Source: Alphaproteobacteria bacterium (GTDB taxonomy: Bacteria; Pseudomonadota; Alphaproteobacteria; CAAGCB01; CAG-977). From it: 64,000 nt of DNA. The stretch's first letter is position 1; every line of letters begins with the position of its first letter. Below, piece by piece: positions 39,345 through 55,401 of this stretch. The DNA lies in assembly GCA_017616015.1 (NCBI GenBank), contig JAFZYY010000018.1, positions 125-64,124 of the forward strand. The letters are read 5' to 3'. The position numbers were made by a program, and so were the translations under genes. The notes under the pieces are model-generated. The model worked only from the letters and a program-made list of their open reading frames with translations. It made no database searches and had not been told where the DNA came from.

Positions 39345-39347
39345 TTT

Positions 39348-39391: not shown

Positions 39392-39450
39392 AAGTAAAGA
39401 GATAAATCTGGTTTACAAGCTTATCTTTGAATAAAACGGCTTAGGCGGTG

Positions 39451-39762: not shown

Positions 39763-39794
39763 GTCTGCCCTGCCATCGGAATGATTTTTAAGGA

Positions 39795-40313
39795 TCAGTT
39801 TTCGCTAATCTTTTTCAAAGCGTTCATAACGATTTCTTTTTTCTTTTCGTAAGTTACGGTTTTTCCTGTTCGAAGCTTTTCATCCTGAATTTTATTTCTC
39901 AGTTGATCGGGTAATTCATCCGTCATAATAGCGATTGTTTCACCCGCCTTATGGATGCTATATCCTTCCTCTTCCAAAATTTTTATCATATCTTCTAGGC
40001 TGTCAGAAGAAAGTTTTCCATTATTTTCAAGATCTTCTATAATCTTTCCGAGATTTTCAATTTTATTGGAAAGTTTTTCATTATCTTTTTTTAATTGGTT
40101 CTTTTGGCTTTCACCCCGTCCATCTTTAACCTTTCTTCCCCTAATTGCGGTTTCAAGATGAGCAAAAAGTTTATTTGCAATTTTGATTTCCTTATATCTT
40201 TGATCGTAAGATGCATTATACACATTTTTTATTTTTTTGAGATTTGTAAGCGATTTCTTGTCATTTACGTCAAACTCTTCCAATAAAGCCATTATGTCTT
40301 CATTTTCACTCAT
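39795..40313 (-). CDS. hypothetical coiled-coil protein
   Basis: 172 aa, Lys/Glu-rich with heptad-like regions. No family recognised. Confidence 0.4.
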   Translation of the reverse strand: MSENEDIMALLEEFDVNDKKSLTNLKKIKNVYNASYDQRYKEIKIANKLFAHLETAIRGRKVKDGRGESQKNQLKKDNEKLSNKIENLGKIIEDLENNGKLSSDSLEDMIKILEEEGYSIHKAGETIAIMTDELPDQLRNKIQDEKLRTGKTVTYEKKKEIVMNALKKISEN

Positions 40314-40426
40314 TTCATTTGCTCCTTTTTAAGGTGTTTTAGCAATCTGTTCCCAGCGACAAGTTCGCCCCGCCGCAGGAAACAATTTAGAGCATGTCTT
40401 TTTCTGTCGAACTTAAATATCCGATA

Positions 40427-40999
40427 TTATATTCCCACAGGCGTTAATCTGTTTGCAATATAATACTTTCTTTCATCTGCATCTGATTTCAACATAATAA
40501 CATCTGGAAATTCTCTTAAAGACCTATCTAACCTTACATAGACATTTTTTGGATTATTTTTACTGAAGAATCTAGATAGAATAGTAATATCCTCTTGTAC
40601 AGGATGCTTAATAGCCCTTTCGTTCAATATTTTCTCATTTGCAAACAGATAGGAACAGTGAATTAGTGTATGTTCAAGACGATTAAGTTCTTTTTTAAGA
40701 TCGTCTTGGTTACTTTTTTTGAAAACGCTGTCATACGTTCCAATCCAAAACCGAGCTTTTTTTATTTTTGAGAATTTTTTATCCACTGAATTTTGATAGG
40801 AAAAATGTTGTTTGGCTCTGACCGAACACGTCTGTTTTGTTTGTCCAACATATTGAACATTTTTTTCATTCTGCCATTTTCTTATTCCTGCAATCATATA
40901 CAAAGTGCTATTTGCCCACTTGGCGTATTTTTCAGGATCAAAATCGGACAATTCATCATAAGTAAACGGTCCCAACCAATCTATCGTATAATACTCCAT
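40427..40999 (-). CDS. hypothetical protein with GIY-YIG-like spacing of conserved residues
   Basis: LYMIAG...VQYVGQT....R..QH......LEHTLI...N resembles GIY-x-YIG-R-E-N (weak). I prefer the start at ATG 40999 (AGAAGGAAG upstream). The ATG at 41026 lies inside the operator at 41020-41036. Confidence 0.35.
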   Translation of the reverse strand: MEYYTIDWLGPFTYDELSDFDPEKYAKWANSTLYMIAGIRKWQNEKNVQYVGQTKQTCSVRAKQHFSYQNSVDKKFSKIKKARFWIGTYDSVFKKSNQDDLKKELNRLEHTLIHCSYLFANEKILNERAIKHPVQEDITILSRFFSKNNPKNVYVRLDRSLREFPDVIMLKSDADERKYYIANRLTPVGI

Positions 41000-41019
41000 C
41001 TTCCTTCTCTCTCTTTCAA

Positions 41020-41382: not shown

Positions 41383-42390
41383 TTATTTCCACCGTTCCTT
41401 TTCGGCTTTCTTAACGCGTTGCCAGAAATCGGCGGGCTGGACGACTTCGACTTGTTTTCCCCACGTCGCCAGATGCCAAGCCATTTCCAACGTGCCACCT
41501 GCGCGGAATTTCACAGTCAGAGTGCCATCTTCGTTTTTGATCGTTTCCTGTCCGGGGTGGAAAATGAAGTTTTCCGCTTCGGGCGCGGCTTTCGCGGTGA
41601 ATTTCCATTCGACGTCGTACGGTTCTTCGCGGTACACACCGAAAGAATCTTTTACATACTCGTTCATATCGAAACCAATACCCTTGAAATCGCCTGTTGT
41701 TACGATGGCTGAGCGAATGTTCGACAAGAGGAATTGATGAATCTCGTTGCCGGCAAAACCGTCCCAGTGGCGCGCCAGCAGATACTGCGCTCGATCGCTG
41801 TATAAAATGCCATACGGTTCAACTGCGCCTTCACTGATTTTACCGCTTCTTTTATTGAAGTATTCGATATTGAGGACTTTCTTTTCCTGTATGGCCTGAC
41901 GGATCGTTTTAACGATTTCAGGGTCGATTTTTGTTCTTATTCCCGGACGGAAAACGTTTCCTTCCGAAAAATCAAAATTGTTTAATTCTTGCTCTTTATT
42001 TCCGAGAGCCCGAACAATCTGAGCGCGGAGTTTCGTCAGGCGATCGCTGTCCGTATCCCTGTTTTGTTGCTTCATCAGATTGGCAAGATTATTCAGAAGC
42101 AACAAATCTTCGTCATCTATTTCTAAGAATTGCGGAAGCTTTTGCCCGCCGAGAATTGTCCATTTTTTCTTTCCGCCCTCTGAGACTTCTTTCAAACCAT
42201 TGGCATACACTTCCTGAAAGCACCCGATTAAGCGATCCGCCGTCCGTTTTGAACATTTCATGATTTGGCAGATTTCGTCTTTTGTCAAAGCCCGACCGAA
42301 CATATTGACCGCCAAATCCAAAACTCTGGTAAAACGGGCGTAAGTTCCTTGTTCCGCCTTATCTCTTTTATCTTCTTTTTTTCTCATCAT
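41383..42390 (-). CDS. HTH-WYL-WCX transcriptional regulator (BrxR/CapW-like), copy 1
   Basis: N-terminal wHTH, WYL core (IEYFNKRSGKISEGAVEPYGILYSDRAQYLLA) and a C-terminus collinear with copy 2 (TLEMAWHLATWGKQVEVVQPADFWQRV). I set the start at MMRKK (42390/42387) behind AAGGAG. Confidence 0.8.
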   Translation of the reverse strand: MMRKKEDKRDKAEQGTYARFTRVLDLAVNMFGRALTKDEICQIMKCSKRTADRLIGCFQEVYANGLKEVSEGGKKKWTILGGQKLPQFLEIDDEDLLLLNNLANLMKQQNRDTDSDRLTKLRAQIVRALGNKEQELNNFDFSEGNVFRPGIRTKIDPEIVKTIRQAIQEKKVLNIEYFNKRSGKISEGAVEPYGILYSDRAQYLLARHWDGFAGNEIHQFLLSNIRSAIVTTGDFKGIGFDMNEYVKDSFGVYREEPYDVEWKFTAKAAPEAENFIFHPGQETIKNEDGTLTVKFRAGGTLEMAWHLATWGKQVEVVQPADFWQRVKKAEKERWK

Positions 42391-42462
42391 CGGCTCCTTT
42401 GGTTTTCGTCTATATGAACGGTTGTTGAAATATATCATACTCAATACCCTTTCAGACCGCAA

Positions 42463-43305
42463 TCAGGCTTTGTTCATCAGGAAACGAAGCGTTTCAATTT
42501 GGTGGTCTATTCTTCTGTCAATCATTTCCGAAGGCGGCTGTTTTTGCAATTCTCTGATCTGGTCAATGATAAAACCGAATAAAACTTCATATTTACCCGT
42601 CATTTTAGCCCCTTTATCAACCAGATAGAGGAAAATGTCCTTATCCTTATACAAAGCGTAATTCAAGGCCGAATAATCGCATTTGTCAGTTATGTTTACG
42701 TCACCGCCCAAGTCTTCAATCAACCAACGCAAAACAGAAAAAGAACCATACTCCGCCGCCAGAGGAATCAGCGCGTCGACCGGATCGTTTACATCAAAAA
42801 CAACCCCGTACCGTTGTGCCCATTTCATAAAGCCCAGATTTTTTGTGTGGACACAGGCACGCGCCAAAGAATGCCCCTGATCGTCGCAAACGGACAAATC
42901 CGCCTTGCCGTCTTCAACAAGTGTCAAAAACGACCGCCTGCATTCATGAAAGCAAGCCATCATCAACGGAGAAATCCTTTTGGGGAAAGTATCAAAATCC
43001 GTATTGATGTCGGCTTTTATGTTCCGTGCGGCACGGAGAAACGCTTTGAGTGTTTTCGCATGGTTCGTTAAAACAGCGTGATGAAAAGCGACCCTCCGTA
43101 ATTCCTGCGGCAAAGCGGCAAATCCGCTTTCGATCGCCCATGCTTCGCGATGGCAGACTTTTTCGAAAAATCGGGTTTTAAAATAAATCTCGAGATCGTC
43201 GAAAAAATAATCTTCCAGTTTTTTTTCCAGCATAAAACGATCCATGTTTACGCTTTCAGAAACTTCTGCATCGTCATCATCTGTTTGATTGAATAGGTCA
43301 AACAT
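42463..43305 (-). CDS. ankyrin-repeat protein with unrecognised N-domain 'Y' (copy 2)
   Basis: N-domain W.IESGFAALPQELRRVAFHHAVL is shared with 43328-44179, followed by ANK repeats (SPLMMAC..., GHSLARAC..., ...). Start at MFDLF (43305) by alignment with the paralogue. Confidence 0.7.
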   Translation of the reverse strand: MFDLFNQTDDDDAEVSESVNMDRFMLEKKLEDYFFDDLEIYFKTRFFEKVCHREAWAIESGFAALPQELRRVAFHHAVLTNHAKTLKAFLRAARNIKADINTDFDTFPKRISPLMMACFHECRRSFLTLVEDGKADLSVCDDQGHSLARACVHTKNLGFMKWAQRYGVVFDVNDPVDALIPLAAEYGSFSVLRWLIEDLGGDVNITDKCDYSALNYALYKDKDIFLYLVDKGAKMTGKYEVLFGFIIDQIRELQKQPPSEMIDRRIDHQIETLRFLMNKA

Positions 43306-43327
43306 CTTCAAAGCGTCCTTTCTGCCG

Positions 43328-44179
43328 TTAAACCTTTTTCGCAAAACCTTTCAGCTTTTGAATTTCGCGGTCGATTTCAAAGTTGATAATGTCGGACGGC
43401 TGTTGCGCCCGCAGCTCTTTAATCCGCTCGACTATCGGAACAAAAGCGGCTTCGGAAAAATCGGTCGGATACGCCCCTTTATCGATCAGGTACAGAATGT
43501 TTTCCCGTACCTCGAACATACAAGCGTAATACATCGCCGTATGACCTTCCGCATCAGCAACATTCACATTACCGCCCAAAACCTCAATCAGCCATTTCAG
43601 CACAGCTTTCGATCCTTCCGCCCCTGCTAAAGGCAGGACCGCGTCAACCGGATCGCTCAAGTCAAAATCGACACCATGTTTCCTTGCCCATTTCATAAAC
43701 GCTAAATTATGCGAAAACAGGCAGGCATACGCCAGACCGCGCCCGTGATTATCTTTGACGGACAAAGATGTGCCGCCTTTTTCAACCAACGTTAAAAAAG
43801 AATTTTTGCACTTGTTAAAGCACGCCCGCATCAGCGGCGGAACTCCGTATTCCGGATCGCAAAAGTCGGTATTGATGTCCGCCTTCGCATTTTTCGCCGC
43901 CGCGATAAAGGCTTCGACAATATCGGAATCATCGGTCAGAACGGCATGATGAAAAGCGACCGCACGCAATTCTTGCGGCAAAGCGGGAAATCCGCTTTCA
44001 ATGTCCCACACCATACGGCGGGCAACCCGTTCGCAAAAGTCCGTTTCCAGATAATCCTCTAATTCGCATGGAAAAAACGCCTCCAGTTCGTCTAACAACA
44101 TTTCGACTTCCTCGATCGCTTCCATCGGCGTGTTCATGTAATCCGCCTGTTCGTCCGTAACCGTGTTCATATCAATCAT
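43328..44179 (-). CDS. ankyrin-repeat protein with N-domain 'Y' (copy 1)
   Basis: WDIESGFPALPQELRAVAFHHAVL plus ANK repeats. GAGGAG RBS. Confidence 0.7.
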   Translation of the reverse strand: MIDMNTVTDEQADYMNTPMEAIEEVEMLLDELEAFFPCELEDYLETDFCERVARRMVWDIESGFPALPQELRAVAFHHAVLTDDSDIVEAFIAAAKNAKADINTDFCDPEYGVPPLMRACFNKCKNSFLTLVEKGGTSLSVKDNHGRGLAYACLFSHNLAFMKWARKHGVDFDLSDPVDAVLPLAGAEGSKAVLKWLIEVLGGNVNVADAEGHTAMYYACMFEVRENILYLIDKGAYPTDFSEAAFVPIVERIKELRAQQPSDIINFEIDREIQKLKGFAKKV

Positions 44180-44213
44180 GGCTTATTCTCCTCTTTTGAT
44201 GTTCAATAAAGGT

Positions 44214-44246
44214 ATTATAGTCTGTTAGTGCGTCAGAACCTGACGC
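44214..44246 (-). promoter_or_regulatory. island operator plus -10 (GCGTCAGGTTCTGACGC, 10 nt, TATAAT)
   Basis: Perfect 7+7 palindrome GCGTCAG-N3-CTGACGC at 44230-44246. TATAAT (minus strand) is at 44219-44214, about 35 nt before ATG 44179. Confidence 0.7.
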
Positions 44247-44249
44247 TTA

Positions 44250-46385
44250 CTAAAGCGACTTCAGGATGTTTTTCCAATCAAAGACATCTTTGTTTTTCAG
44301 AACGATGTCCCGCGCCGTTTCGCCGTTCGCGTTCGTCGCCGTTTTGTCCGCCCCGTGCTTCAAAAGCCAGCGGATCGCTTTGATGTTGAACGCCTCCGCC
44401 GCGACGACGATCGGCGGTTCGCCGTCATCGTTTTTCGCGTTGACGTCCGCACCGATGCTGAATAACAGATCAAGCCTTTTTCCGACATCGTCTTTGACTT
44501 CGCACGCCGAAGCGACGGGAGAGCCGGTAAAGTCCGTTTTGTCGTGTTTGAAAAGGAACTGCAAAGCGCGCAGATGCTTTGTCGCGAAATTGACGGGCGT
44601 CAGTCCTTTATTTGTTTTCGCGTCAAACTGTTCGCGGGAATGTTTCCAAACCAGCCGCATCGCGCCCATATCGCCCGCCTGACAATACCGCATCAACGCG
44701 TTGACACCGTTTTTATCGGGGTTCGGATCGACAATGGTGCGAAATTTTTCATCCTCCTCTTTTTGCTCTTTTTTCCTTTCATCAAAAGCGTCGATAAGAG
44801 AGCTGAGTTCTTTCAACGGCTTGATCAGAGCGTTCAGCTGGCGGACGTTCTTCGGATCGACGGGGGAATAAATTCGATGACGGCGAACTGTTTGCAGTTC
44901 TTCTATCCGTTTGGAAAAAATCTCCTGACGACCGACCAATCCTTCCGCCCATGAACAAAATTCATGTTCTTTTCTGTCGTAAAAATTCGGATAAATGATG
45001 TGCGTCATCGGACTTATACACGCCGACAGCAAGAATTTTTCCCGTTTCGGGTCGCACCACAGACCGTCCGCGTAAAGATTGATGTATTCCCCGAAATCAG
45101 GCCGTTCACCAAGCATATATATGCGCGGCAGTCTGATGCCGTAAATTGCGCCGTCCGCATTGATTTCCGTACGAAGCGCGATAAATTCGTCCAGATTGTG
45201 AAACAGATACCGGTAAAAGTTGTTGATCAGATCGTCTTTGCTCATAAACATTCCCCCGTTGTTTTTATAATTTTCAATTTTCTTCATCAGAGCGGGAATC
45301 TCCTCCCAATCAAAGACGTCTTTGTTTTTCAACACGATGTCCCGCACCGTTTCGCCATCTTTGTTTTCGAGGAAAACGTCCGCGCCGTTTTGAAGAACGC
45401 ATCGTATTGTTTCAAGGTCTTTGAATTTCGCCGCGACGATCAAAGGCGTGTCCCCGTCCTTGTCCCGCGCGTTGATGTCCGCCCCGTGTTTAACCAGCCA
45501 TTGAACCGCATCAACGTTGCCCCGCCGCGCGGCATAAACGATCGCGGGTTCCTCTTTCCAGCCTTTTATATTGATGTCCGCGCCGAGTTCAAACAACAGA
45601 TCAAGCCGTTCTTTAACGTCGTTCCCGCTCTTGCACGCGTTCAGGATAACGGGTGCGTCGGAAACGTTCGTTTTGCCGCAATCGCAAAGAAAGCGCAAAA
45701 TACTCAAATCGTTCGCGGCGGACAAAAGCAGGTCTTTGCTTTCCGCCTTCTCGAAAATCTGCGGGAAGTTGTTCAGGACGTATCTCACCCTGTCCAACTC
45801 TCCTTCCCAACAATTATGCGACAGCGTTTCTATGCCTTTTTTGATGTTCTTTTCGGTGATTTGACCGTTTATCGGACGGGCAAAGCCAAGACATTTAAAG
45901 TCGTTCCCCGCATGGTGCGTGTATTCTTTCAGCGGGCGAAACAACTCCGTCAGCCTGTTTTGTGTTTCAAGGGGGATTTTTTTCTTTCCCGCCTGCGGTT
46001 TGTATTGAGCAACACGACGCGCCTGCTCGAACAGCGTTTCTGAATCGGGAAAACCGCGGGGATGTATGTCAAATTCTTTTTCCTCGTTGTCCCAACAATA
46101 CACTTTAACGGCCATGCTTCCGGGCGGCGGGAATTGCAACATCTTATACAGAAAGACGTTCTTTTTCCGATCGCACCACTGACCGTTGGCGTAAAGCGTG
46201 ATCAGATCACCGAAACGAAGTTCGAATTGCTCTTTTCCTAAAATACTCGTTATCCCGCCGCCGTCATGCGAATAAATTTCAGGGGTCGCGTCGATAGCGT
46301 CCTTCAACGCGATGAATTCGTCGATATGGTCGAAAAGGTAAGCGTAGTATTCGCGATAATATTCCTTAAAATCAACAGAAAACAT
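44250..46385 (-). CDS. tandem fusion of two 'X-domain + ankyrin repeat' modules
   Basis: Residues 1-375 and 376-711 are paralogous to each other and to 50079-51326 (FDH..EFIAL, YA.G.WCD, ANK repeats, both ending RDIVLKNKDVFDW). Strong RBS GGGAGGA. Confidence 0.75.
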   Translation of the reverse strand: MFSVDFKEYYREYYAYLFDHIDEFIALKDAIDATPEIYSHDGGGITSILGKEQFELRFGDLITLYANGQWCDRKKNVFLYKMLQFPPPGSMAVKVYCWDNEEKEFDIHPRGFPDSETLFEQARRVAQYKPQAGKKKIPLETQNRLTELFRPLKEYTHHAGNDFKCLGFARPINGQITEKNIKKGIETLSHNCWEGELDRVRYVLNNFPQIFEKAESKDLLLSAANDLSILRFLCDCGKTNVSDAPVILNACKSGNDVKERLDLLFELGADINIKGWKEEPAIVYAARRGNVDAVQWLVKHGADINARDKDGDTPLIVAAKFKDLETIRCVLQNGADVFLENKDGETVRDIVLKNKDVFDWEEIPALMKKIENYKNNGGMFMSKDDLINNFYRYLFHNLDEFIALRTEINADGAIYGIRLPRIYMLGERPDFGEYINLYADGLWCDPKREKFLLSACISPMTHIIYPNFYDRKEHEFCSWAEGLVGRQEIFSKRIEELQTVRRHRIYSPVDPKNVRQLNALIKPLKELSSLIDAFDERKKEQKEEDEKFRTIVDPNPDKNGVNALMRYCQAGDMGAMRLVWKHSREQFDAKTNKGLTPVNFATKHLRALQFLFKHDKTDFTGSPVASACEVKDDVGKRLDLLFSIGADVNAKNDDGEPPIVVAAEAFNIKAIRWLLKHGADKTATNANGETARDIVLKNKDVFDWKNILKSL

Positions 46386-46452
46386 TAAAATCCTCCCTTT
46401 AGTTGATGATTAACGTGCGCAACAAGCAGAGCCAAATCCGCACGATTCGTGT

Positions 46453-47727
46453 TTAATATACAGCAGGGGTGCGACGAAATCTGACGTATCTGTAAGAGGG
46501 TCGCTTATAAACTTGATGTGGGAACCTTCTTTTTTCCTTTGCGACGAACAGATCGCCGAAATCTTCCAAAAACGGCAGATAATCCTTTTCACAAATGCAC
46601 GCGGGATCGACACCGAAAAGTTCCGCCAGTTTTTTGCTTAAATAAGAACAGTATTCCTCTACGGTTTCTTTCGGATGATTGATCCGAAGCAAAACGTCGG
46701 ACCCGACAGTCTGTTTCGAGGGAAACAAACACTCGGTTAAAAAACGGCACAACGCCCTGATTTGATCGGTTGGAATCATCGAGGGATTCACCTTTATTTG
46801 CGGTAAAAGAAAAAAATCGTTTGCCCGACGGGACAAAGACAAGAATTCTCCGACGGGTCTTGTTTCCAATACCGAAACAAATTCCGATTTTTCATCGCTC
46901 AATTCGTCTTGTTTGTCTTTCATCAGCCGTTCGAATATCCGAAGCGCTTTTTCTTTCGGATATTTCGTCTGAAAATACAAATCGTTGAGCGTATGAACCA
47001 AACCGGAAAAATCCGTTTTTTCCAATCGAAAAGATGAGAAAACAGGAAATCGCAAAACCCTCAAACACGATTTTCCTTTTATAAAACGGAACACGTTTTT
47101 ATCAAGGAATTCCAGTCGCCGGCAAACTTTTTCTATGGCATCCCTGTTGTAATACGAATATGAACCGCTCCATTTTCCGTTATCGTTTTTGACAAACCAA
47201 ACGTTATTTTCCGCCGAGTCGTCTTCCTCTTCAATCAAATAACGGTTCTCCAGAAAACCGCATTTTTCCAAAATCGGGATCACTTTTTCGCCGAATTCCT
47301 GCGACGTTACCGTACTGCCTTTCCAATGTACCATAATCAGTCCGGCTTTACGGGCTTCTTTCTGAAAGACATCATCATGATCTCTTTTGGTCAAAGCATG
47401 AATGATTTCGTGCACGATTGTGTTTGCCAAATCTATTCCGTCATATTTCCGTCGCCAGTCTATCAGAATTTGATTATCTTCCAGATCACATTCCCCAAGA
47501 CGAAAACTCAAATTTGAAAAATCGATACTGAACATCATTTTTTTATCAGGGAAAAAGGTTTCGACAAGCCCCGACACCAGCGTTTTGAACCACGGTGTTT
47601 TTGTTGTTTGGAAAATGATTGTGCTTTTGGCGACAGTAAGCTTTTCCACTTTTTTAGGTTTGGGAAGTTTCCTCCACTTTAACGAATGCAGATTGTTCAA
47701 GGTGATATTTTCCGCTTTTTTCGTCAT
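46453..47727 (-). CDS. SprT/SPRTN-type zinc-metalloprotease-motif protein, 'S' copy 1
   Basis: HEIIHALTKRDHDDVF fits HExxH-x(n)-H..F of SprT-like proteases. The N-terminus LTVAKSTIIFQTTKTPWFKTLVSGLVETFFPDK is shared with 48800-50062. Confidence 0.6.
   Translation of the reverse strand: MTKKAENITLNNLHSLKWRKLPKPKKVEKLTVAKSTIIFQTTKTPWFKTLVSGLVETFFPDKKMMFSIDFSNLSFRLGECDLEDNQILIDWRRKYDGIDLANTIVHEIIHALTKRDHDDVFQKEARKAGLIMVHWKGSTVTSQEFGEKVIPILEKCGFLENRYLIEEEDDSAENNVWFVKNDNGKWSGSYSYYNRDAIEKVCRRLEFLDKNVFRFIKGKSCLRVLRFPVFSSFRLEKTDFSGLVHTLNDLYFQTKYPKEKALRIFERLMKDKQDELSDEKSEFVSVLETRPVGEFLSLSRRANDFFLLPQIKVNPSMIPTDQIRALCRFLTECLFPSKQTVGSDVLLRINHPKETVEEYCSYLSKKLAELFGVDPACICEKDYLPFLEDFGDLFVAKEKRRFPHQVYKRPSYRYVRFRRTPAVY
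46455..46487 (-). promoter_or_regulatory. degenerate operator copy plus -10 (ACGTCAGATTTCGTCGC, 10 nt, TATATT) inside the 3' end of the upstream CDS
   Basis: The left half-site is perfect and the right half is CGTCGC. The 10-nt offset to TATATT is kept. It lies about 70 nt upstream of ATG 46385. Confidence 0.35.
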
Positions 47728-47767
47728 AAGAAGTTCCTTTCAAAAATATGTTTTGATTGTAAGAACC

Positions 47768-47800
47768 ATTAAACCATACGGAAGCGTCAAAAGCTGACGC
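47768..47800 (-). promoter_or_regulatory. island operator plus -10 (GCGTCAGCTTTTGACGC, 10 nt, TTTAAT)
   Basis: The motif at 47784-47800 fills the gap between stop 47802 and ATG 47727. Confidence 0.65.
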
Positions 47801-47801
47801 T

Positions 47802-48773
47802 TCATTCGACCGGCATACTGAAAATCCCGTCAAATTCAGGAATGACATTCCCCTGCCAGAAAACACGGGTGATACCGTTTTCATCCCGCAAATCCAGTCT
47901 TTTTTCCCGTGCGGCTTCAAGGTTTTTCAATGATGAAAAAGCGTGATCCTTTGCACCGTGTTCGGGCAGAGTTTTTGAAAAATCCGGCGCGTATTTTTTT
48001 TCAATCATCCGCACCCAAACAGCATATTTTCCTTCATTGAAATAAATCCGCCGCAACGGAGCGATCAGGTGTTCGCGATCAGGAAAACGTGTGGCGATCA
48101 TGTGTCGGAAAAAACATAGTGCGAAACGCTCGAATCTTTCAGAACAATGTGAATGAAGCGCAAGCTTTTTTTGTTTCAAATCGAACTCCGGCAGGAGCTC
48201 CGTTTGATTAAACCTGAAATCCCGAACGACCGCCTGCCAAAACGTGTTCAAGCCGGAACCGACAGTCCCGTCCGCAAAATCCCGTATCCAATCATCGAAC
48301 TCCGCATCGCTTCCGCCCCAATACGGTTTGACGAAGTTTCTGAAATCCTTTCCCCATTCTTTCAGGATATGCGCGTTTCTTTTCTTCAAACGTTCCTCGT
48401 AAAACGACGTGTCCAACGTTGTCGGTTTTGTCAGATATTTATCCCTTGCGGCGTTAAAGGCGTGTTTGTCGGGATAAAAGACCTTTTCGATTTCGTCTTT
48501 CTGATTGCAAAAGGCGATCCAGTATTCCGGCTCGTTCACCCGCACAGGCCCGATAAAGCGTTTAATCCTGTATCCTTTGAACGGCAGATGGGAAAACACG
48601 ATCCTGCGTCCGTGCGATAAATGCGTCAAATCGGCAAGACCGCCCGTCGCTCCGGTCGTCCGTAATAAAACATGATCCGCCAAACCAAACAAATCGTCGC
48701 CGACATAACGCACAAATGCGGGACATTGTTCTTTCAGCCATTGATGTATTTCTTCCTTCGTATTCAGAATCAT
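47802..48773 (-). CDS. hypothetical protein (323 aa), singleton in the array
   Basis: No motif recognised. I moved the start to MILNTKE (48773) behind AAGAGG, which removes a 61-nt overlap. Confidence 0.5.
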   Translation of the reverse strand: MILNTKEEIHQWLKEQCPAFVRYVGDDLFGLADHVLLRTTGATGGLADLTHLSHGRRIVFSHLPFKGYRIKRFIGPVRVNEPEYWIAFCNQKDEIEKVFYPDKHAFNAARDKYLTKPTTLDTSFYEERLKKRNAHILKEWGKDFRNFVKPYWGGSDAEFDDWIRDFADGTVGSGLNTFWQAVVRDFRFNQTELLPEFDLKQKKLALHSHCSERFERFALCFFRHMIATRFPDREHLIAPLRRIYFNEGKYAVWVRMIEKKYAPDFSKTLPEHGAKDHAFSSLKNLEAAREKRLDLRDENGITRVFWQGNVIPEFDGIFSMPVE

Positions 48774-48799
48774 CTTTTGCCTCTTAAAGTTTTTTCCGT

Positions 48800-50062
48800 T
48801 CAACACCAGTCGGGAAAATACTTCCGTATCACCCGCAGTTTTTCGGGAAAACTTTTCCAACGCCAGTCGGACTTTACATCGGCGTATCCTTCATCGGCGT
48901 CCGATATGAAAAATTGTTCGCTTCTTGCGTTTCTTTCCGTTTCCAATTCGGCTTGCCTGATCGGTTCTTTGCCGTTTTTCGTTTTCCGCTCGATCAGGCC
49001 GATCAGCTTTTTCAGCGTTTCCAGATCCGATGCGGCCGCCGCCTGAAAAGAAGCGTTTAGCGCTCCACGTAAAGCGACGACCGTTTCCAGCGGCAATGCC
49101 GGTTGCTCTTTTTCAGCGGATGACCGCCGATTTTTAAAAAAGTCCGAAACACGCGGATAATAAGCGGAAAGCAGGTCGCCGAAAAGGTCCGTGTTCGAAC
49201 AAAGTGCGGAAACCTTAAAGAACGGATGTTTCGTCCTCTTTTTTGAAGGAAACGCCGTTTCCAGCGCCGCGATCCTTTGAACGATGTTTTGTTGCGCGGC
49301 GGCTTTTCCCGTGTCGTTCGTTTCGGGCAGGGAAATCCAATCGCCTTCCGTGTTTTTCAGCAGACAAAACTTTTTTCCTTCGTTCAATTTTTCAAGATCG
49401 ATCTTCCGAATGTTTTTAAAAACGGAGGCTTCCCAATCACGGTATTCTATCGGAAATATTTTCTTATCGATTTGTTCCGAAATTTCCAGATCAACGGCAA
49501 GCCGGAGAGCCTTTTGCCTGATTTGCACTTTTTCGGAATTACCTGTCGAATATTCGGGATAGGCGAGCCATTCCCCTCTTTTCTTCCTTATTAGGAAAAA
49601 GACGTCCGAAATATTCTTTGTCCTGTCGGGAAAAATATTCGGGTATTCCTTTTCCAGTCTTTTCAAAACAGGGGATATTTTTTCGGCGAAATCCCGTGTC
49701 GGTTGAGTAAAACCGTTTTTATAAAGCATTATTAAGCCGGCTTTTGCCGCTTCTTTCTGAAAATCCGCCCCATGTAAACCTTTGGCAAAGACGTGAATAA
49801 TTTCATGCGCGATGACTTCCGCCGTTTCTATCCCGTCCATGTGATACCAGCTGTTTATAAAAATACGACTGGGGGCTTCAAACCAAAAACAAGTACCATA
49901 AGCGCCATTTTTTCTTTTTTTAATCTCGATGCTGAACGTCAGTTCTTTATCGGGGAAAAAAGTTTCGACAACGCCCGACACCAGCGTTTTGAACCATTCG
50001 TCCGTCGTTTTGAAAAAGATCGTGCTTTTAGCGACGGTCAACATTTCTTCTTTCTGCGTCAT
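48800..50062 (-). CDS. SprT/SPRTN-type zinc-metalloprotease-motif protein, 'S' copy 2
   Basis: HEIIHVFAKGLHGADFQKEA matches SPRTN-style HEMIH...GHGPEF. The N-terminus is paralogous to 46453-47727. Confidence 0.6.
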   Translation of the reverse strand: MTQKEEMLTVAKSTIFFKTTDEWFKTLVSGVVETFFPDKELTFSIEIKKRKNGAYGTCFWFEAPSRIFINSWYHMDGIETAEVIAHEIIHVFAKGLHGADFQKEAAKAGLIMLYKNGFTQPTRDFAEKISPVLKRLEKEYPNIFPDRTKNISDVFFLIRKKRGEWLAYPEYSTGNSEKVQIRQKALRLAVDLEISEQIDKKIFPIEYRDWEASVFKNIRKIDLEKLNEGKKFCLLKNTEGDWISLPETNDTGKAAAQQNIVQRIAALETAFPSKKRTKHPFFKVSALCSNTDLFGDLLSAYYPRVSDFFKNRRSSAEKEQPALPLETVVALRGALNASFQAAAASDLETLKKLIGLIERKTKNGKEPIRQAELETERNARSEQFFISDADEGYADVKSDWRWKSFPEKLRVIRKYFPDWC

Positions 50063-50078
50063 TTGTTTTTCCTTTCGG

Positions 50079-51326
50079 TTACAGGTGTTCCGTTTGACCG
50101 TTTTCCCGCATCGCGTTTGTCAGGAACTTCGGGATTTTTCCCCAACGGAAATCTTTCTTTTCTTTCAAAACAATGTCGCACACCGTTTTACCGTCGTTGT
50201 TTTTAATGAAAATGTCCGTCCCTTTTTTCAGGAGTTCCCACATCGCCTCGATGTTCCGGGATTTTGCCGCGATGATCAAAGGCGTGTCCCCTTCGTTATT
50301 TTGCGCGTTCATATCCGCGCCTTTTTCCAAAAGGAAACGTATGATCGGGTGTTTTCCCGACTTCGCCGCGGCGATCAAAGGCGTGTTTCCGTCTTTGTCC
50401 CGCGAATTGATGTCCGCGCCATGGGCAAGAAACCATTTGATCGCGTTAATGTTTTCAAACTGTGCGGCATAGACGACCGGCAACGTTCCGTTCGCCGTCG
50501 TTTCGTTGACATCGGCCCCCAACCTCAAAAGAAAATCCAGACAGTCTTTGTTCGAACAGGACGTTTCGCACGCCGAAGCATACGGGGAATCGGTCAGCGT
50601 TTTTTTGCCGATGTTGACAAGGTAATATAAAACGAACAAATGTTCGGCGGCGGCGATCAGCAGATCCCCACTTTCGAACCTGTCGAAAATCTGCGGCACG
50701 TTCTGCCGGATATACTTTACCTGAGAAAGATACCCTTCCAGACACCCTTCCAGCAGTTTTTTCATTCCGATTTTAATGTCGTCTTCGCTGATCCGACCGT
50801 CAAGCGGACGGACAAAACCCAAATTTTCGTAGTCCCTTCCGGCATATCCGATGATTTTATCCAACGGTTCCGACAACGTTTTCAGCGCAAGGCGCGTTTC
50901 GCAGGGAACGACGGATTTTTTCCGCATCCGATCCTCCCTGCCGTCAATGACCCTCTTCGCCTGTTCGCACAATGTCGCAGTATCGGGAAAACCGCGCGGG
51001 TTCGTTTCGTATTTCCTCTCTTTCCTGTTCCAGGCGTAATGACGCACGCCGTGCTGACCCGCCATGATTTTAAACAGAAAGACGTTCTTTTCCCGATCAC
51101 ACCATTGACCGTTCGCGTAAAGCTCAACCAAGTCCCCGAAATCAAGATAGACTTTTTCGGGATGCCCCTTTCGCGGGAAAAGACACAATCCGCCGCCGTC
51201 CCTCATATAGATTTTCGGGGAAGCGTAGAAAGCCTCTCTTAAAGCGATAAACTCCTCCGCATGATCGAAAAAGTAAGCGAAATATTCGCGAAAATACGTT
51301 TTGAACTCAATTTCTTCACCAAACAT
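50079..51326 (-). CDS. 'X-domain + ankyrin repeat' protein
   Basis: MFGEEIEFKTYFREYFAYFFDHAEEFIAL...YANGQWCDREKNVFLFK followed by canonical ANK repeats (GNTPLIAAAKSG...LLEKGADMNAQNNEGDTPLIIAA). Start at ATG 51326 behind GGAGGA, by alignment with 44250-46385. Confidence 0.75.
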   Translation of the reverse strand: MFGEEIEFKTYFREYFAYFFDHAEEFIALREAFYASPKIYMRDGGGLCLFPRKGHPEKVYLDFGDLVELYANGQWCDREKNVFLFKIMAGQHGVRHYAWNRKERKYETNPRGFPDTATLCEQAKRVIDGREDRMRKKSVVPCETRLALKTLSEPLDKIIGYAGRDYENLGFVRPLDGRISEDDIKIGMKKLLEGCLEGYLSQVKYIRQNVPQIFDRFESGDLLIAAAEHLFVLYYLVNIGKKTLTDSPYASACETSCSNKDCLDFLLRLGADVNETTANGTLPVVYAAQFENINAIKWFLAHGADINSRDKDGNTPLIAAAKSGKHPIIRFLLEKGADMNAQNNEGDTPLIIAAKSRNIEAMWELLKKGTDIFIKNNDGKTVCDIVLKEKKDFRWGKIPKFLTNAMRENGQTEHL

Positions 51327-51375
51327 ATCAAATCCTCCGCCGTTAATCAGAGCCGAATCCGAACAAGTTGAGTCC

Positions 51376-51408
51376 ACTGTAACGGAGTGATGCGTCAGAC
51401 CCTGACGT
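51376..51408 (-). promoter_or_regulatory. island operator plus -10 (ACGTCAGGGTCTGACGC, 10 nt, TACAGT)
   Basis: Motif at 51392-51408, about 65 nt upstream of ATG 51326. Confidence 0.65.
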
Positions 51409-51487
51409 TTCTAAAAAAACGACAGTCCGATTTTCAAAAAAGAAGAGAAACGCTATATTTTAATCAAACAGAATCCACGGAAATTTC

Positions 51488-51515
51488 TTGAACAGCACAG
51501 TGAAGATTATATACT
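51488..51515 (+). promoter_or_regulatory. sigma70-like promoter without operator (TTGAAC, 16 nt, TATACT)
   Basis: Hexamers at 51488-51493 and 51510-51515, about 25 nt before ATG 51541. Confidence 0.4.
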
Positions 51516-51540
51516 TTTATCTACGTTAAGGAGATATTTG

Positions 51541-52089
51541 ATGAAAAAAGAAACGAAAAGACCTTTGAGTAAGAAAAAACAACTTAAAGAGGATTTTTTA
51601 TCCGCGCTTGAAAATGCTTTTGGAGACGTTCTGACTGAATATAAATTTCCCTGGCTTGTTCTAAAAGGTATTTCTGAAATGGATGTTCCGGAACAAAAAA
51701 TTTATAACGCGCTGGTGTCCATGCGCGGTTTTAAAGATTTTTACCGTATAGGAACATCTCTGCGTTGCGATTACGTTCTGCCGCGTCAAAAAATCATTGT
51801 CGAATTTGACGAACGTCAGCATTTCACCCTACAACGGGCGAAATCCTTTGAATTTTATCCCGATGATACAACTGTTTTCTTTGATAAGAAAATATGGAGC
51901 GAGCGTTGTTACAATTTAAAGGCGTATGACAATGATCCCCCATATCGAGATGAACAAAGGGCGTTTTTTGATTCTTTGCGAGACATCCGTTCTTTCAAAA
52001 ACGGATTTAAACTTATCAGGTTTTACGAAAAAGACCTGACATCTTCTGAAGAAATTGAGAAATCCGTTCAAAAAATAAAGGAGCTTTAA
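51541..52089 (+). CDS. hypothetical protein with DUF559/Vsr-like (PD-(D/E)xK-type) motif
   Basis: CDYVLPRQKIIVEFDERQHF resembles the D...(I/V)ExDxxxH core of DUF559/Vsr-fold endonucleases. AAGGAG RBS. Confidence 0.4.
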   Translation: MKKETKRPLSKKKQLKEDFLSALENAFGDVLTEYKFPWLVLKGISEMDVPEQKIYNALVSMRGFKDFYRIGTSLRCDYVLPRQKIIVEFDERQHFTLQRAKSFEFYPDDTTVFFDKKIWSERCYNLKAYDNDPPYRDEQRAFFDSLRDIRSFKNGFKLIRFYEKDLTSSEEIEKSVQKIKEL

Positions 52090-52090
52090 A

Positions 52091-52975
52091 ATGAAAGTCG
52101 CTGTTATTCATGTCCTTAAAAAACTTAATACCGAACATAAAAAAGATCTTCTACACGAAATCTCAAAAGAAATAAAAAAGAGTGAAAAGAAACCGGATAT
52201 AATCCTGCTTCCTGGCGGATATTTTATATCGGATACATATATGGGGGAATATGATTTTGATGAAAGAAAAAAGATTCTAGAAAAGCAATTCTTTTCCAAA
52301 GAATTGAAATCGTTTTCAAAAAATATGGAAGCCGCTATTGTCGCCGGAATTGACACCGGAAAAGACGCATGGAAAGCAAAGGGCGATCAAATGTGTGTTG
52401 CTTGGAATGAAACCGGCGTTCTGGGAATCGGAAGAAAAGTTTGGACGGTTAATGGAGATGAAGGGCAAAACTATCATGTAAATTTTGACGACTTCGGAAC
52501 ATCGCATCGTTTAGTTAAGATAAAAAACAAAAAAATCCTTTTGTGTTCATGCTATGACGGCTACGGAACGGAGGGAGATTGCGCGCAACAAAACAATCGT
52601 TTGAAAAACACTAAAAATATCTTTTTTGATCATAAACTTCTGAAAAAAGATATTTCTGAATTGAAAGAAAAAGGAAAGAAGAAATGGAACGACTTGCTGG
52701 ATAAGGCGGATATGGCTTTCATTTCCATCCATAATTTTTCGAATGAAGGCTTCGGCTCCGGGAAAGGATATTGGACACGGGGAATCAGAGCCAGATCAAA
52801 AAAAGACCATAAAGATTTTGCCATTTTCGGCGCGTCTCATTTCGAGAATATGGACATGGGGGAAAACGCCAATCGCTTTTCAGCAAAAAACGGCATTGAT
52901 CTGGACATCAAAAAAGAAATCAGAATAAACAACGGGAAAGCGAATACTGCAATTATCCGTTTTTATGAGATATAA
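52091..52975 (+). CDS. hypothetical protein (294 aa)
   Basis: Starts 1 nt after the upstream stop codon, so it is translationally coupled. Only a vague resemblance to the CN-hydrolase strand order (PDIILLPGG, KILLCSCYDG), and the catalytic Glu is absent. Confidence 0.45.
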   Translation: MKVAVIHVLKKLNTEHKKDLLHEISKEIKKSEKKPDIILLPGGYFISDTYMGEYDFDERKKILEKQFFSKELKSFSKNMEAAIVAGIDTGKDAWKAKGDQMCVAWNETGVLGIGRKVWTVNGDEGQNYHVNFDDFGTSHRLVKIKNKKILLCSCYDGYGTEGDCAQQNNRLKNTKNIFFDHKLLKKDISELKEKGKKKWNDLLDKADMAFISIHNFSNEGFGSGKGYWTRGIRARSKKDHKDFAIFGASHFENMDMGENANRFSAKNGIDLDIKKEIRINNGKANTAIIRFYEI

Positions 52976-52999
52976 ACAATAGAAAACGAAATTTAACAC

Positions 53000-53035
53000 A
53001 TCTTCCGATGCTTTAAAGTGTCGGAAGATTTTTTA
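53000..53035 (+). terminator. intrinsic terminator of the 51541-52975 operon
   Basis: ATCTTCCGA-12 nt-TCGGAAGAT followed by TTTTTT. Confidence 0.7.
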
Positions 53036-53052
53036 TGTGTCCGATTTTTCAT

Positions 53053-53085
53053 ACGTCAGGTTTTGACGCTTTCGTATCGTATAGT
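53053..53085 (+). promoter_or_regulatory. island operator plus -10 (ACGTCAGGTTTTGACGC, 10 nt, TATAGT)
   Basis: About 70 nt upstream of ATG 53156. Confidence 0.65.
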
Positions 53086-53155
53086 GAATACGAATCGTGC
53101 GGATTTGGCTTCGCTTGTTGCGCACGTTAATCAAACAACTAAAGAGAGGTTTCTT

Positions 53156-53905
53156 ATGTCTTATCCCGTTATTGTGAACATTCCCCACGCGTCCGTCGAA
53201 ATCCCGGACTTTGACGATTACGTTTTATCCCCCGACGCCGTTCGTCGGGAAGCGCGATTGCTTGCCGACCTTTACACAGACGAACTGATTGACGATGCGG
53301 AAAACGTCGAACGCGTCGTCGCTCCGGTTTCCCGCGTGTATGTCGATACGGAACGCTTTGCCGACGACGACAAAGAGGAAGCCGCCCGTTACGGTATGGG
53401 CGTTCTTTACACTAAAACGCACGACGGCGTTTATCTGCGTCAGCCTGTTTCCGAAGAACGGCGGTCGGAATTGCTGAAAAAGTGGTATAAACCACATCAC
53501 GCCCGTTTGACACACTTGGTTGATACGGCTTTAAGCACAGAGGGAAAAGCCCTCATCATAGACCTGCACAGTTATCCGACACGCTTTGATATGCTTGGCA
53601 TCAAAGGCAAATACACGCCCGATATTTGTATCGGTTGCGACGCGATCCACGGCGACATAACGGTTTTGGAAACGTTGGTGAACTGGTGTTACGAAAACAA
53701 ATACACCTGCGCGATCAACAATCCTTTTTCGGGTTCCGTCGTTCCCCTGAAACACTACGAAAAAAACAAAACCGTCACGTCCTTTATGCTCGAAATCCGC
53801 CGAAGCCTTTATATGAACGAGGAAGCCTTTGAAAAGACGGCAAGCTTTTTCACACTGAAAAACGCCCTTGCCGGACTGATAAGAAAAATATCGAGCAAAG
53901 ATTGA
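53156..53905 (+). CDS. N-formylglutamate amidohydrolase (FGase, PF05013-like) family protein
   Basis: VNIPHASVEIP, DLYTDEL, SRVYVDTER and ALIIDLHSYP follow the FGase-family motif order. Start at ATG 53156 behind AAAGAGAGG. Confidence 0.6.
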   Translation: MSYPVIVNIPHASVEIPDFDDYVLSPDAVRREARLLADLYTDELIDDAENVERVVAPVSRVYVDTERFADDDKEEAARYGMGVLYTKTHDGVYLRQPVSEERRSELLKKWYKPHHARLTHLVDTALSTEGKALIIDLHSYPTRFDMLGIKGKYTPDICIGCDAIHGDITVLETLVNWCYENKYTCAINNPFSGSVVPLKHYEKNKTVTSFMLEIRRSLYMNEEAFEKTASFFTLKNALAGLIRKISSKD

Positions 53906-53921
53906 TAGTCTTTGTTTGCGT

Positions 53922-54941
53922 TTAATCAGTCGGAGAAGACGGATCGAGTCCGTTGAACCTGTTCTGAGCTTCTTCGGCGCGCTGCCAGAAATCGGCGGGC
54001 TTAATCACTTCAACGCTGTCGCCCCATGTTTTTAAATGCCAAGCCATTTCTAAGATACCGCTTGTTTTCATTTTGACTGTCAAAGAACCGTCAGGATTTT
54101 TAATCATCTTTTGTGACGGGTGGAAAGAAAAGCGACCGGCTTCCCGTGCGATTTCTTTTTTAAACCGCCATTCAAAGTTTATCGGTTTACCGTGAAATGC
54201 ACCGAAAGATTCGGCAGCATACTCTTTCAGATTAAAATCGGGATCGATTTCAAAAACTTCATTTAAGATTTCAATATTGCTTATAGACGTTAAAATGAAG
54301 CTGCGGATTTCGCCTTTGTCATTTTTTGCAATCAGATAATGATTGCGTTCACCATATAAAAAGCCATAAGGACAAACAACGCGGGAAGAAAACTTCCCCT
54401 GTTTTTCATAGTCAAAACGCACTTTCTGACATTTCAAAAGGGCTTCACGCAGTTTAAGCAAAAGACTTTGATCGATAAGCAGTTTCGGACCAGGGCGGGA
54501 GGCAAACCCTTCACTTTTAATCAGCTCTTCGGCATCAACGTCAAGCCTCATTTTTTCTTTGGACGGGATCAGATTTTTGATTTTATTCACCAGATGTTTT
54601 AACGTCTTGGCCTTATCGTTCAGCTTTTGCTTTTCAAGTGCATCAACAGCCAAATCAAGCGTAGCCAGCTCATCACTGGAAATGCCTATCAAACGGTTCA
54701 ATGCGCCGGAAGAAGTAAGCCGCCAACGTTTTATCCGTGTTTGTGTCGGGACCTCTTCAAGATCAAGAAAAAAAATTCTTTCCAAAGCGTCGCGCATACG
54801 TTCGGCCGTACGGCGTTTGCAGTCATACTTTTGCATGATGTCGTTTAAAGATACCCCTTCCGCACTTTGTTGCATATCCAGGGCTAAATCAAACAAATCA
54901 AGCAATTTTCCGTAGATTAAATCCTGTTGTTTTTTAGGCAT
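53922..54941 (-). CDS. HTH-WYL-WCX transcriptional regulator (BrxR/CapW-like), copy 2
   Basis: WYL core RFDYEKQGKFSSRVVCPYGFLYGERNHYLIA and C-terminus ILEMAWHLKTWGDSVEVIKPADFWQRA. The alternative start at 54959 lies inside the operator. Confidence 0.8.
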   Translation of the reverse strand: MPKKQQDLIYGKLLDLFDLALDMQQSAEGVSLNDIMQKYDCKRRTAERMRDALERIFFLDLEEVPTQTRIKRWRLTSSGALNRLIGISSDELATLDLAVDALEKQKLNDKAKTLKHLVNKIKNLIPSKEKMRLDVDAEELIKSEGFASRPGPKLLIDQSLLLKLREALLKCQKVRFDYEKQGKFSSRVVCPYGFLYGERNHYLIAKNDKGEIRSFILTSISNIEILNEVFEIDPDFNLKEYAAESFGAFHGKPINFEWRFKKEIAREAGRFSFHPSQKMIKNPDGSLTVKMKTSGILEMAWHLKTWGDSVEVIKPADFWQRAEEAQNRFNGLDPSSPTD

Positions 54942-54958
54942 TTTATATTCTCTCTTCA

Positions 54959-54991
54959 TACGTCATAAATTGACATGCTTAAAAAGTATAA
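54959..54991 (+). promoter_or_regulatory. island operator plus -10 (ACGTCATAAATTGACAT, 10 nt, TATAAT) in the divergent WYL-2 / 55025 intergenic region
   Basis: The motif abuts or overlaps the 5' end of the WYL-2 gene and faces the 55025 operon. Confidence 0.65.
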
Positions 54992-55024
54992 TAAAATAAA
55001 ACTTTCTGTCAACGGGAGGAAAAG

Positions 55025-55360: not shown

Positions 55361-55401
55361 GGGATAAATATCCGATATTCTGAACCAGTTAGAGGTACTA
55401 A

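Follow-up and report, generated by a model that had tools for sequence, protein, structure and literature searches.

A modular array of ankyrin-repeat, SprT-like and orphan genes behind DriD-type promoters in an uncultured alphaproteobacterium

The chromosomal stretch analysed here, referred to as the window, comprises 64,000 nucleotides of an uncultured alphaproteobacterium (assembly GCA_017616015.1, contig JAFZYY010000018.1, positions 125 to 64,124) and carries an array of ankyrin-repeat (ANK) genes, genes for predicted SprT-like proteases and orphan genes, with a gene for a WYL-domain regulator at its end. This raises the question of what turns such an array on and what its products are for. 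A first-pass annotation made from the sequence had left the choice between a defence module, cargo of a mobile element and secreted effectors. The promoter sequences revealed four DriD-type transcription units, with the regulator gene wyl1 (WYL1) as the last gene of the fourth, and membership of the array in a DriD-type regulon is well supported. For the function, which we infer, the defence or stress module is favoured by genomic context and regulation: the array would be a conflict or stress module of binders and SprT-like proteases that is induced by single-stranded DNA (ssDNA), a tentative reading to which a probability of roughly 0.4 is assigned. The array can be described as a lineage-specific, modular and fast-reshuffled cluster, located at a hot spot for defence islands in uncultured Alphaproteobacteria of the gut.

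The listing of open reading frames (ORFs) agrees with the first-pass annotation on the seven genes, all on the minus strand, and on their coordinates (Table 1). The array ORFs span 42463-51377 if XANK1 is counted from an upstream GTG at 51377, a start which is located upstream of the predicted transcription start. WYL1 is positioned directly after YANK2 and is apparently cotranscribed with the Y-ANK genes. Three operator-headed units had been proposed; the repeated operators are real and occur in the window far above chance, but the units number four, since XANK2 has a degenerate box of its own. The operator core GTCARNNNYTGAC (GTCAR-N3-YTGAC) was identified six times in the window compared to 0.14 expected, and the strict pattern, consisting of the box, 11 nt and a -10-like hexamer, seven times compared to 0.03 expected, with no occurrence of the strict pattern in the 36 kb of housekeeping DNA of the window. 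This layout is present at no fewer than ten promoters, four in the array and at least six more across 39.7-63.5 kb, and the whole 25-kb island looks like one regulon. The same box geometry was identified upstream of array genes in 12 related loci, and the canonical box CGACAGGTTTTGTCG (core CGAC-N7-GTCG) is carried by many related loci. The looser pattern CGNC-N7-GNCG was rejected as a definition of the box, with 46 hits compared to 23 expected; being too permissive, it was replaced by the extended box combined with the -10 spacing.

DriD has been described as an ssDNA-activated activator of a damage response that is independent of the SOS system (PMC9186387). Its consensus is ATACGAC-N7-GTCGTAT, of which CGxC-N7-GxCG is kept across alphaproteobacterial homologues (PMC10853764); the site overlaps the -35 element at a fixed distance from the -10 element, and the box adjoining driD drives a divergent operon (PMC13004042). 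The window shares these promoter features with Caulobacter crescentus. Its box CGTCAG-N3-CTGACG, which is CGTC-N7-GACG, fits the DriD core, the palindrome of the array promoters, CG(T/A)CA-N5-TG(A/T)CG, covers the -35 position with a constant 11-nt spacing to the -10-like hexamer, and the box at 54961, beside a driD-like gene, faces a divergent operon. The regulators themselves, with a winged helix-turn-helix (wHTH) followed by the WYL and WCX domains that Pfam identified in both proteins, align with DriD over the full length. In searches of the PDB, WYL2 was matched to 8TP8 with an E-value of 9e-45 and WYL1 to the same entry with 2.5e-23; the DriD entries matched were 8TP8/8TPK, 9PFQ, 7TZV and 7U02, the sole other match was a stray one of WYL2 to the designed repeat protein 7UE2, and no BrxR or CapW entry was found at E < 0.01. 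The stretch RRTAERMRDA in the recognition helix of WYL2 is identical to that of DriD and includes the DNA-contacting Arg37, as counted on the alignment. Since the WYL proteins are DriD-like and the box covers the -35 position, an ssDNA-triggered activator is more likely than the simple repressor assumed in the first-pass annotation.

In other respects the window differs from Caulobacter. The genes behind its boxes are orphan ANK, X, SprT and defence-type genes and not recA, recJ, didA, bapE and dnaG, its promoters are clustered (at least ten in 25 kb), the array itself encodes a second DriD paralogue, whose recognition helix differs, and the half-site in this genome is mostly CGTCA instead of CGACA. 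BrxR and CapW are likewise WYL regulators encoded beside defence-type genes, with palindromic operators, and CapW also senses ssDNA (PMC11662680; PMC9122601). However, those regulators repress one adjacent system, whereas the boxes in the window head many units, the closest solved relatives of the window proteins are DriD, and the promoter layout is that of an activator.

A further box, GGTCATGTTTTGACG, was identified between 41022 and 41194 on the plus strand, followed by 11 nt, the hexamer TAATCT and about 100 nt without a convincing ORF, at the end of which a strong terminator hairpin, ATCTCCCGG...CGGGAGAT, precedes a T run. This region, which is convergent with WYL1, is a candidate for a small RNA inducible by damage. 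Both the box and the sequence downstream of it are conserved in the related loci L010 and L014; at the equivalent place in L001, L012 and L018, weak matches to sRNA-Xcc1 were found on the strand opposite to the predicted transcript.

The array is built from paralogous modules, as BLASTP comparisons agree for X-ANK, S and Y-ANK. Identity amounts to 44% between XANK1 and the first half of XANK2 (E 4e-106), 32% between the halves of XANK2 itself (E 6e-42), 51% between YANK1 and YANK2 (E 1e-88), and 41% between S1 and S2, here over the N-terminal ~190 aa only (E 3e-32); WYL1 and WYL2 share 34% (E 1e-54). The motifs quoted in the first-pass annotation, HEIIHVFAKGLHGADF, HEIIHALTKRDHDDVF, LTVAKSTI...WFKTLVSG.VETFFPDK and YANGQWCD, were all found. 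Strong ankyrin repeats were identified by Pfam in all four ANK genes (Ank_2; XANK1 and XANK2 at E 1e-30, the Y-ANK proteins between 1e-11 and 2e-13), and the ANK proteins contain the tandem 33-residue helix-turn-helix repeats by which the family is defined. For X, SING and the C-terminal regions of S, zero matches were obtained in Pfam, NCBIfam, PHROGs and PADLOC, and profile and sequence searches of the PDB with X, S, the C-terminal region of S2 and SING gave chance matches only.

For the X domain, the AlphaFold2 model of XANK1 is confident, with a predicted local distance difference test score (pLDDT) of 85. X proper was modelled as an alpha/beta domain of residues ~1-135 (helices within 5-40, strands 43-50 and 57-62, helix 63-71, strands 82-108, helices 116-135), followed by a long helix at 142-169 and, from residue 181 on, by ~6 ANK-type helix pairs. 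The ~230-aa domain of the first-pass annotation thus has to be shortened, the remainder being ANK-like in the model, and X is not always fused to ANK repeats as had been stated, since other genomes contain stand-alone X proteins of 169-211 aa and an N-terminal part of ~55 residues fused to S. Modelled alone, X reached a pLDDT of 81 and a predicted template modelling score (pTM) of 0.79, and the claim that it is unrecognised held in Foldseek: the best E-values were 0.89 against the PDB and 0.19 against BFVD, with TM-scores below 0.25. The full-length XANK1 model retrieved DARPin and ANK structures only and was uninformative on X. Conservation in the X superfamily falls mostly on hydrophobic positions and the ANGQWCD motif is missing in the X' subfamily, on which grounds X is read as a non-catalytic domain. 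Two other assignments were rejected. The hint of a PAS fold, given by a LOV2-DARPin fusion as top match, reflects the fusion layout (root-mean-square deviation 17 A), and a Cys/His catalytic centre (H22, C76, with a weak match to adenain) is contradicted by the absence of C76 and ANGQWCD from X' and from stand-alone X.

The S proteins are predicted to be a divergent family of SprT-like zinc proteases. S1 and S2 score 21 bits each with the Pfam SprT-like profile (PF10263; cutoff 25.6), and all 16 members of the family match it, the best with an E-value of 2.4e-8. The SPRTN-type zinc site noticed in the first-pass annotation, HExxH plus a third His, is conserved throughout these sequences, with H86, E87 and H97 invariant and H90 present in 15 of the 16. 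Like SprT, SPRTN, Wss1 and ArdC, S carries HExxH, and its third His stands in an HGxxF-like context; unlike them, it is very divergent, with the window proteins below the Pfam cutoff and without any match in the PDB profile search. The C-terminal domains of ~230 aa are orphans of two unrelated types. No DNA-binding domain was recognised in S by Pfam or PDB searches, and neither an ArdC N-domain (by Pfam) nor a Zn-ribbon or SPRTN DNA-binding domain was detected.

The Y region, which had been taken for a separate domain of ~110 aa, consists of an acidic tail and the first ankyrin repeat; the Y motif overlaps the Pfam Ank match at residues 75-102 of YANK1. The first 40 aa of YANK1 have a net charge of -12, and the isoelectric point (pI) of the protein is 4.6. 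YANK2 is 52-64% identical to its counterparts in related loci. In two Y-ANK relatives, P0055 and P0057, a run of ~45 residues of nearly pure Asp/Glu is inserted; it adds to the acidity of the Y-ANK family, for which DNA mimicry could be considered. The N-terminal ~140 aa of SING recur as stand-alone proteins of 170-213 aa in related loci.

X, S, Y-ANK and SING are tiny orphan families, of 7-51 clusters each among billions of proteins. X was found in 9 clusters among 5.8 billion proteins, S in 14 and Y-ANK in 51, and a profile of X recovered 7 of 1.84 billion cluster representatives, all of the same family. The genomes hit are all metagenome-assembled genomes of uncultured Alphaproteobacteria (UBA2903, UBA3864, HGM16795), including one from the human gut. 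About 25 related loci were compared, and 13 distinct architectures were identified. With the X hidden Markov model, an X gene or its N-terminal part was found in every locus in which the region upstream of Y-ANK was recovered, either fused to ANK repeats (X-ANK, X'-ANK), as a stand-alone gene or, in L017 and L025, as an N-terminal part fused to S. The minimal locus, L018, consists only of a box, an X gene of 169 aa, Y-ANK and WYL. A conserved core of X, Y-ANK and WYL is well supported, while S and SING are variable, with 0-2 copies of S and 0-2 copies of SING or its N-terminal module per locus.

The comparison also revealed how the cluster may change. The counterpart of XANK2 in most related loci is two separate genes, and some single Y-ANK genes resemble chimeras of YANK1 and YANK2. 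In L020 (5667-6950) an S gene is split into three ORFs, and in L017 (8590-9900) the N-terminal part of X is fused to the S protease. L007 contains, in the place of WYL1, a 771-aa DUF262-type, GmrSD-like gene (5427-7742, assigned by motif reading), which has a DriD-like box just upstream, without a -10-like hexamer at the 11-nt spacing. Between loci, identity reaches only 42-64% for YANK2, X' and S, compared to 84-97% for the flanking genes. Cassette duplication, fusion, unequal crossing-over and decay, which are typical of conflict-driven selection, would account for this pattern. Thus the modules appear as they had been described at first, as a real and unrecognised set that duplicates and shuffles, headed by operators and with a WYL regulator at the end. 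The functional pair of X-ANK and S that had been proposed is frequent in the genome survey but not obligatory, with X-ANK present without S in L001 and S without X-ANK in L011. For a functional link between X and S, Rosetta-stone support comes from the fusion of the X N-terminus to S in L017 and L025.

A second layer of regulation may be present in the 5' leader of XANK2. The promoter and leader of this gene and those of the FGase-family gene are copies with 82% identity, and both leaders align end to end with the SAM-II riboswitch family of Rfam (SAM_alpha, RF00521), a class that binds S-adenosylmethionine (SAM), with 24.9 and 27.2 bits; the gathering score is 36, and zero matches reach it anywhere in the window. 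Seven sites gave full-length matches of 23.6-27.4 bits; two of them are in the window and the other five, ahead of X or FGase genes, in three related loci. The conserved SAM-II blocks GAUUUG, GCUUG, CACGUUAA and CUAAAG and the P1 stem are present, and in the XANK2 leader the Shine-Dalgarno sequence GGGAGG is located directly 3' of CUAAAG. In 13 diverse leaders the core is near-invariant, with varying flanks and downstream genes. By pattern extraction, the same leader was found ahead of almost all X-domain and FGase genes of the related loci, and in L017 also ahead of X::S, Y-ANK and SING-like genes; the S, Y-ANK and SING genes have short class-specific leaders of their own. The folding energy of the leader RNA is no different from that of shuffled sequence, and RNAalifold recovered P1 only. 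The full-length alignment, the blocks, P1, the adjacent Shine-Dalgarno sequence and the alphaproteobacterial host are shared with SAM-II, whereas the loop is ~3 nt shorter, the GC-rich P2a segment is missing, the scores stay below 36 bits, and the leader is located behind a DriD box on X-domain, ANK and FGase-family genes and not on methionine genes. As judged from these sequences, the leader is probably a SAM-II-derived riboswitch, with SAM or a related compound as putative ligand. Translation of the X genes that carry it would then probably be blocked while the ligand is abundant.

As for the genomic setting, the first 36 kb of the window contain housekeeping genes, including queA, ligA, a recN-like gene and gshA, and the island begins at ~36.6 kb, where the GC content falls. 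The housekeeping part has a GC content of ~0.50, the island flanks (~36000-41000 and 51000-64000) have one of 0.36-0.42 and the array one of 0.43-0.49, so that the island is apparently of mosaic origin. Its genes in the window include SoFic (E 9e-44), an IetA-like AAA+ gene, an AbiEi-like gene (E 2e-41) and a UvrD-nuclease gene. In related loci, the neighbours of the array include type I restriction-modification genes, an AAA_15/DUF4276 pair, DUF2779, PDDEXK_4 and HipA. The slot occupied by the array is constant across many genomes, bordered by FGase or DUF2779 at one end and by PDDEXK_4 or PEGA genes at the other. Upstream of the array and divergent from it, at 51538-52975 on the plus strand, a DUF7255/DUF559-like gene of 183 aa and an orphan gene of 294 aa form a pair which is 95-97% identical in L014 next to a different array and has no DriD box of its own. 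At 60021-63380 on the plus strand, the IetA-like double-AAA+ gene is followed by an orphan ORF of 315 aa and the AbiEi-like antitoxin-type gene of 149 aa (DUF6088); neither an AbiEii toxin nor an IetS protease was recognised as a partner.

Table 1. Genes, promoter boxes and leaders of the array and its surroundings; positions are those of the window unless a related locus is named
Feature	Position	Strand	Remarks
XANK1	50079..51326	-	X domain and ~6 ANK repeats; 415 aa from ATG 51326
S1	48800..50062	-	Predicted SprT-like Zn-metalloprotease (HEIIH...HGADF); rarer C-terminal domain type
SING	47802..48773	-	323-aa orphan protein
S2	46453..47727	-	Predicted SprT-like Zn-metalloprotease (HEIIH...HDDVF); common C-terminal domain type
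XANK2	44250..46385	-	In-frame X-ANK and X'-ANK fusion, 711 aa
YANK1	43328..44179	-	Acidic N-terminal tail and degenerate ANK array; core component of the locus
YANK2	42463..43344	-	More divergent Y-ANK paralogue; likely start ATG 43305
WYL1	41383..42462	-	wHTH-WYL-WCX regulator, DriD paralogue; likely start Met25 at 42390
DriD-type box CGTCAGGGTCTGACG	51393..51407	-	Heads XANK1-S1-SING; -10-like TACAGT 11 nt downstream (51376-51381)
DriD-type box CGTCAGCTTTTGACG	47785..47799	-	Heads S2; -10-like TTTAAT 11 nt downstream
Degenerate DriD-type box CGTCAGATTTCGTCG	46472..46486	-	Heads XANK2; -10 TATATT 11 nt downstream
DriD-type box CGTCAGGTTCTGACG	44231..44245	-	Heads YANK1-YANK2-WYL1; -10 TATAAT 11 nt downstream
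SAM-II-like 5' leader of XANK2	46379..46453	-	Rfam SAM_alpha, sub-threshold; 75 nt
DriD-type box and leader of FGase-family gene	53054..53160	+	Box 53054-53068, -10 TATAGT, leader 53087-53160
FGase-family (amidohydrolase) gene	ATG 53156, end 53905	+	
WYL2	53922..54959	-	Likely DriD orthologue; full-length match to PDB 8TP8
DriD-type box CGTCATAAATTGACA, 11 nt, TATAAT	54961..54992	+	Points away from WYL2
Operon divergent from WYL2	ORF at 55025		111-aa ORF, then 303-aa helix-hairpin-helix (HhH)-like gene; headed by 54961 box
Box	56285-56299		Heads 1046-aa UvrD/PD-(D/E)XK helicase-nuclease gene; -10 hexamer 11 nt downstream
Box	59957-59971		Heads 665-aa double-AAA+ IetA-like gene; -10 hexamer 11 nt downstream
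Box	63485-63499		Heads next ANK gene (starts 63554); -10 hexamer 11 nt downstream
Box	39709-39723		Assigned to SoFic; -10-like hexamer at 11 nt; ATG ~365 nt downstream
SAM-II-like leaders, L001	7512-7584, 11177-11251		
SAM-II-like leaders, L012	8098-8172, 9219-9293		
SAM-II-like leader, L018	9408-9482		

How the array might work can be outlined from these results. ssDNA arising from DNA damage or phage replication would turn on all four units together. The products would be non-catalytic binders, namely the X domain, the ANK solenoids and the acidic-tailed Y-ANK proteins, accompanied by none, one or two SprT-like zinc proteases with variable C-terminal domains. The X and ANK proteins would recognise proteins of phages or mobile elements, or damaged host proteins, and would either hand these targets to the S proteases or shield them from S. 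WYL1 may feed back on the regulon.

Several points weigh against this proposal. No array protein matches a validated defence system in PADLOC-DB 2.0; the matches obtained, to PDC-M72A, Ankyrin and MzaA, cover ANK repeat regions only, and none was found on S, SING or X. PDC-M72A, MzaA and the Dot/Icm ANK effectors share canonical ankyrin repeats with the array proteins, but the N-terminal domains are unrelated and the scores far below the cutoffs. Since canonical DriD controls DNA-repair and cell-cycle genes, the array could be a repair response instead of an immune one, and since S is absent from some loci, proteolysis cannot be the essential output of the core. The boxes could be bound by WYL1, WYL2 or both, with activation or repression as the effect. 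For the leader, the SAM-II match is below the gathering score, the covariation in P1 amounts to one compensatory change and one G-U change next to three breaks of the outermost pair, and XANK1 has only a decayed copy. The data derive throughout from metagenome-assembled genomes of a clade without cultured members.

A DNA-repair module, in the form of a non-SOS regulon for DNA-protein crosslinks, is an unlikely alternative. Here, S would act like SPRTN or Wss1, the double-AAA+ protein as a Cdc48/p97-like unfoldase and the X and ANK proteins as substrate adaptors or checkpoint factors, and the UvrD-nuclease and the HhH glycosylase-like protein would process DNA. DriD is a DNA-damage regulator, S carries the SprT-like catalytic motif, boxes precede the UvrD/PD-(D/E)XK gene (56285), the double-AAA+ gene (59957) and the HhH-like operon (54961), and in eukaryotes SPRTN is reported to work with p97 (PMC9127365). 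However, a repair function should be conserved, whereas the copy number of S varies from 0 to 2, the gene may decay to a pseudogene, and minimal loci lack it. It also has no recognisable DNA-binding domain in the Pfam and PDB searches. The variation in copy number and the divergence of the array genes next to well-conserved flanks resemble conflict evolution, and the SoFic, AbiEi and restriction-modification neighbours are defence or toxin-antitoxin genes.

Improbable, in our view, is an accessory role comparable to that of IkappaB, in which X and Y-ANK would bind WYL1 or DriD and either keep the factor inactive or modulate it, possibly with the acidic tail of Y as a DNA mimic. S, where present, would release the factor, and the array would tune the regulon, with no effector role of its own. 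This would suit the position of Y-ANK, which adjoins WYL1 in every locus carrying WYL1, with no box between them in the window, the minimal conserved unit of X, Y-ANK and WYL in L018, and the strong acidity of the YANK1 tail. Binding of X or Y-ANK to the WYL factor is a conjecture, however; L007 retains X-ANK and Y-ANK though a DUF262-type gene replaces WYL1, and up to six ANK proteins per locus are excessive for one regulator.

A more elaborate version of the conflict module, a guard immune module with two inputs, is likewise given little chance. It would combine ssDNA, sensed by the DriD-type activator, with low SAM, sensed by the SAM-II-derived riboswitch: most X-domain genes would need low SAM for translation, XANK1 with its decayed leader escaping this control, and the module would fire when a replicating phage also depletes SAM, for example in disarming neighbouring SAM-dependent restriction systems, and would then deploy the X/ANK binders and SprT-like proteases against phage proteins.

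Secretion of the ANK proteins as effectors aimed at a eukaryotic host or a gut protist is very improbable and was disfavoured among the readings first proposed. ANK genes are abundant in these genomes, further ones nearby encode proteins of 398-1059 aa, another starts at 63554, and weak NCBIfam matches to Legionella Ank effectors were obtained, but the latter score 20-55 bits compared to cutoffs of 450-1400 and cover ANK repeats only. The window ORFs scanned included no recognised secretion-system gene, no N-terminal signal peptide was recognised by reading the translations alone, without a predictor, the promoters are of the DNA-damage type, and the neighbours are restriction-modification, toxin-antitoxin and nuclease genes. 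The least probable of all is the remaining proposal of the first-pass annotation, anti-defence or establishment cargo of a mobile element with ArdC-like SprT proteases and ANK inhibitors: SprT-like proteases do occur in ArdC anti-restriction proteins, integrase fragments and DUF3768 are located near some loci, and the GC content of the array flanks is low, but a scan of 2.9 million IMG/VR contigs yielded no relative of either S or X, no ArdC N-domain was found in S, the scanned ORFs of the window revealed no conjugation genes, and the same chromosomal slot is used across many genomes.

The proposed ssDNA-induced module of binders and proteases is assembled from parts which are in part of known kinds, these being the ANK repeats, the SprT fold, the DriD box and the SAM-II scaffold. 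In the literature, no precedent was found for the combination of ANK, SprT and WYL, for 'PDC-M72' or for bacterial SprT crosslink repair. New are the fold of X, which is confidently predicted and has no detectable relative, the architecture of the array, the clustering of DriD promoters over defence-type genes and the SAM-II-like leader on genes other than methionine genes. The host is uncultured, and the operons are small (about 2-9 kb) and thus suited to synthesis. The leader would be an unusual use of a riboswitch, tying SAM levels to stress or defence, and the guard module, if true, would be the first riboswitch-gated defence system, with a new effector logic. Regulation by DriD and WYL, described for a repair regulon whose members are scattered, would extend to a compact island with at least ten promoters in which defence and orphan genes are mixed. 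X, S and the ankyrin binders shuffle as modules, which suggests a binder-plus-protease logic that is undescribed for bacterial conflict systems.

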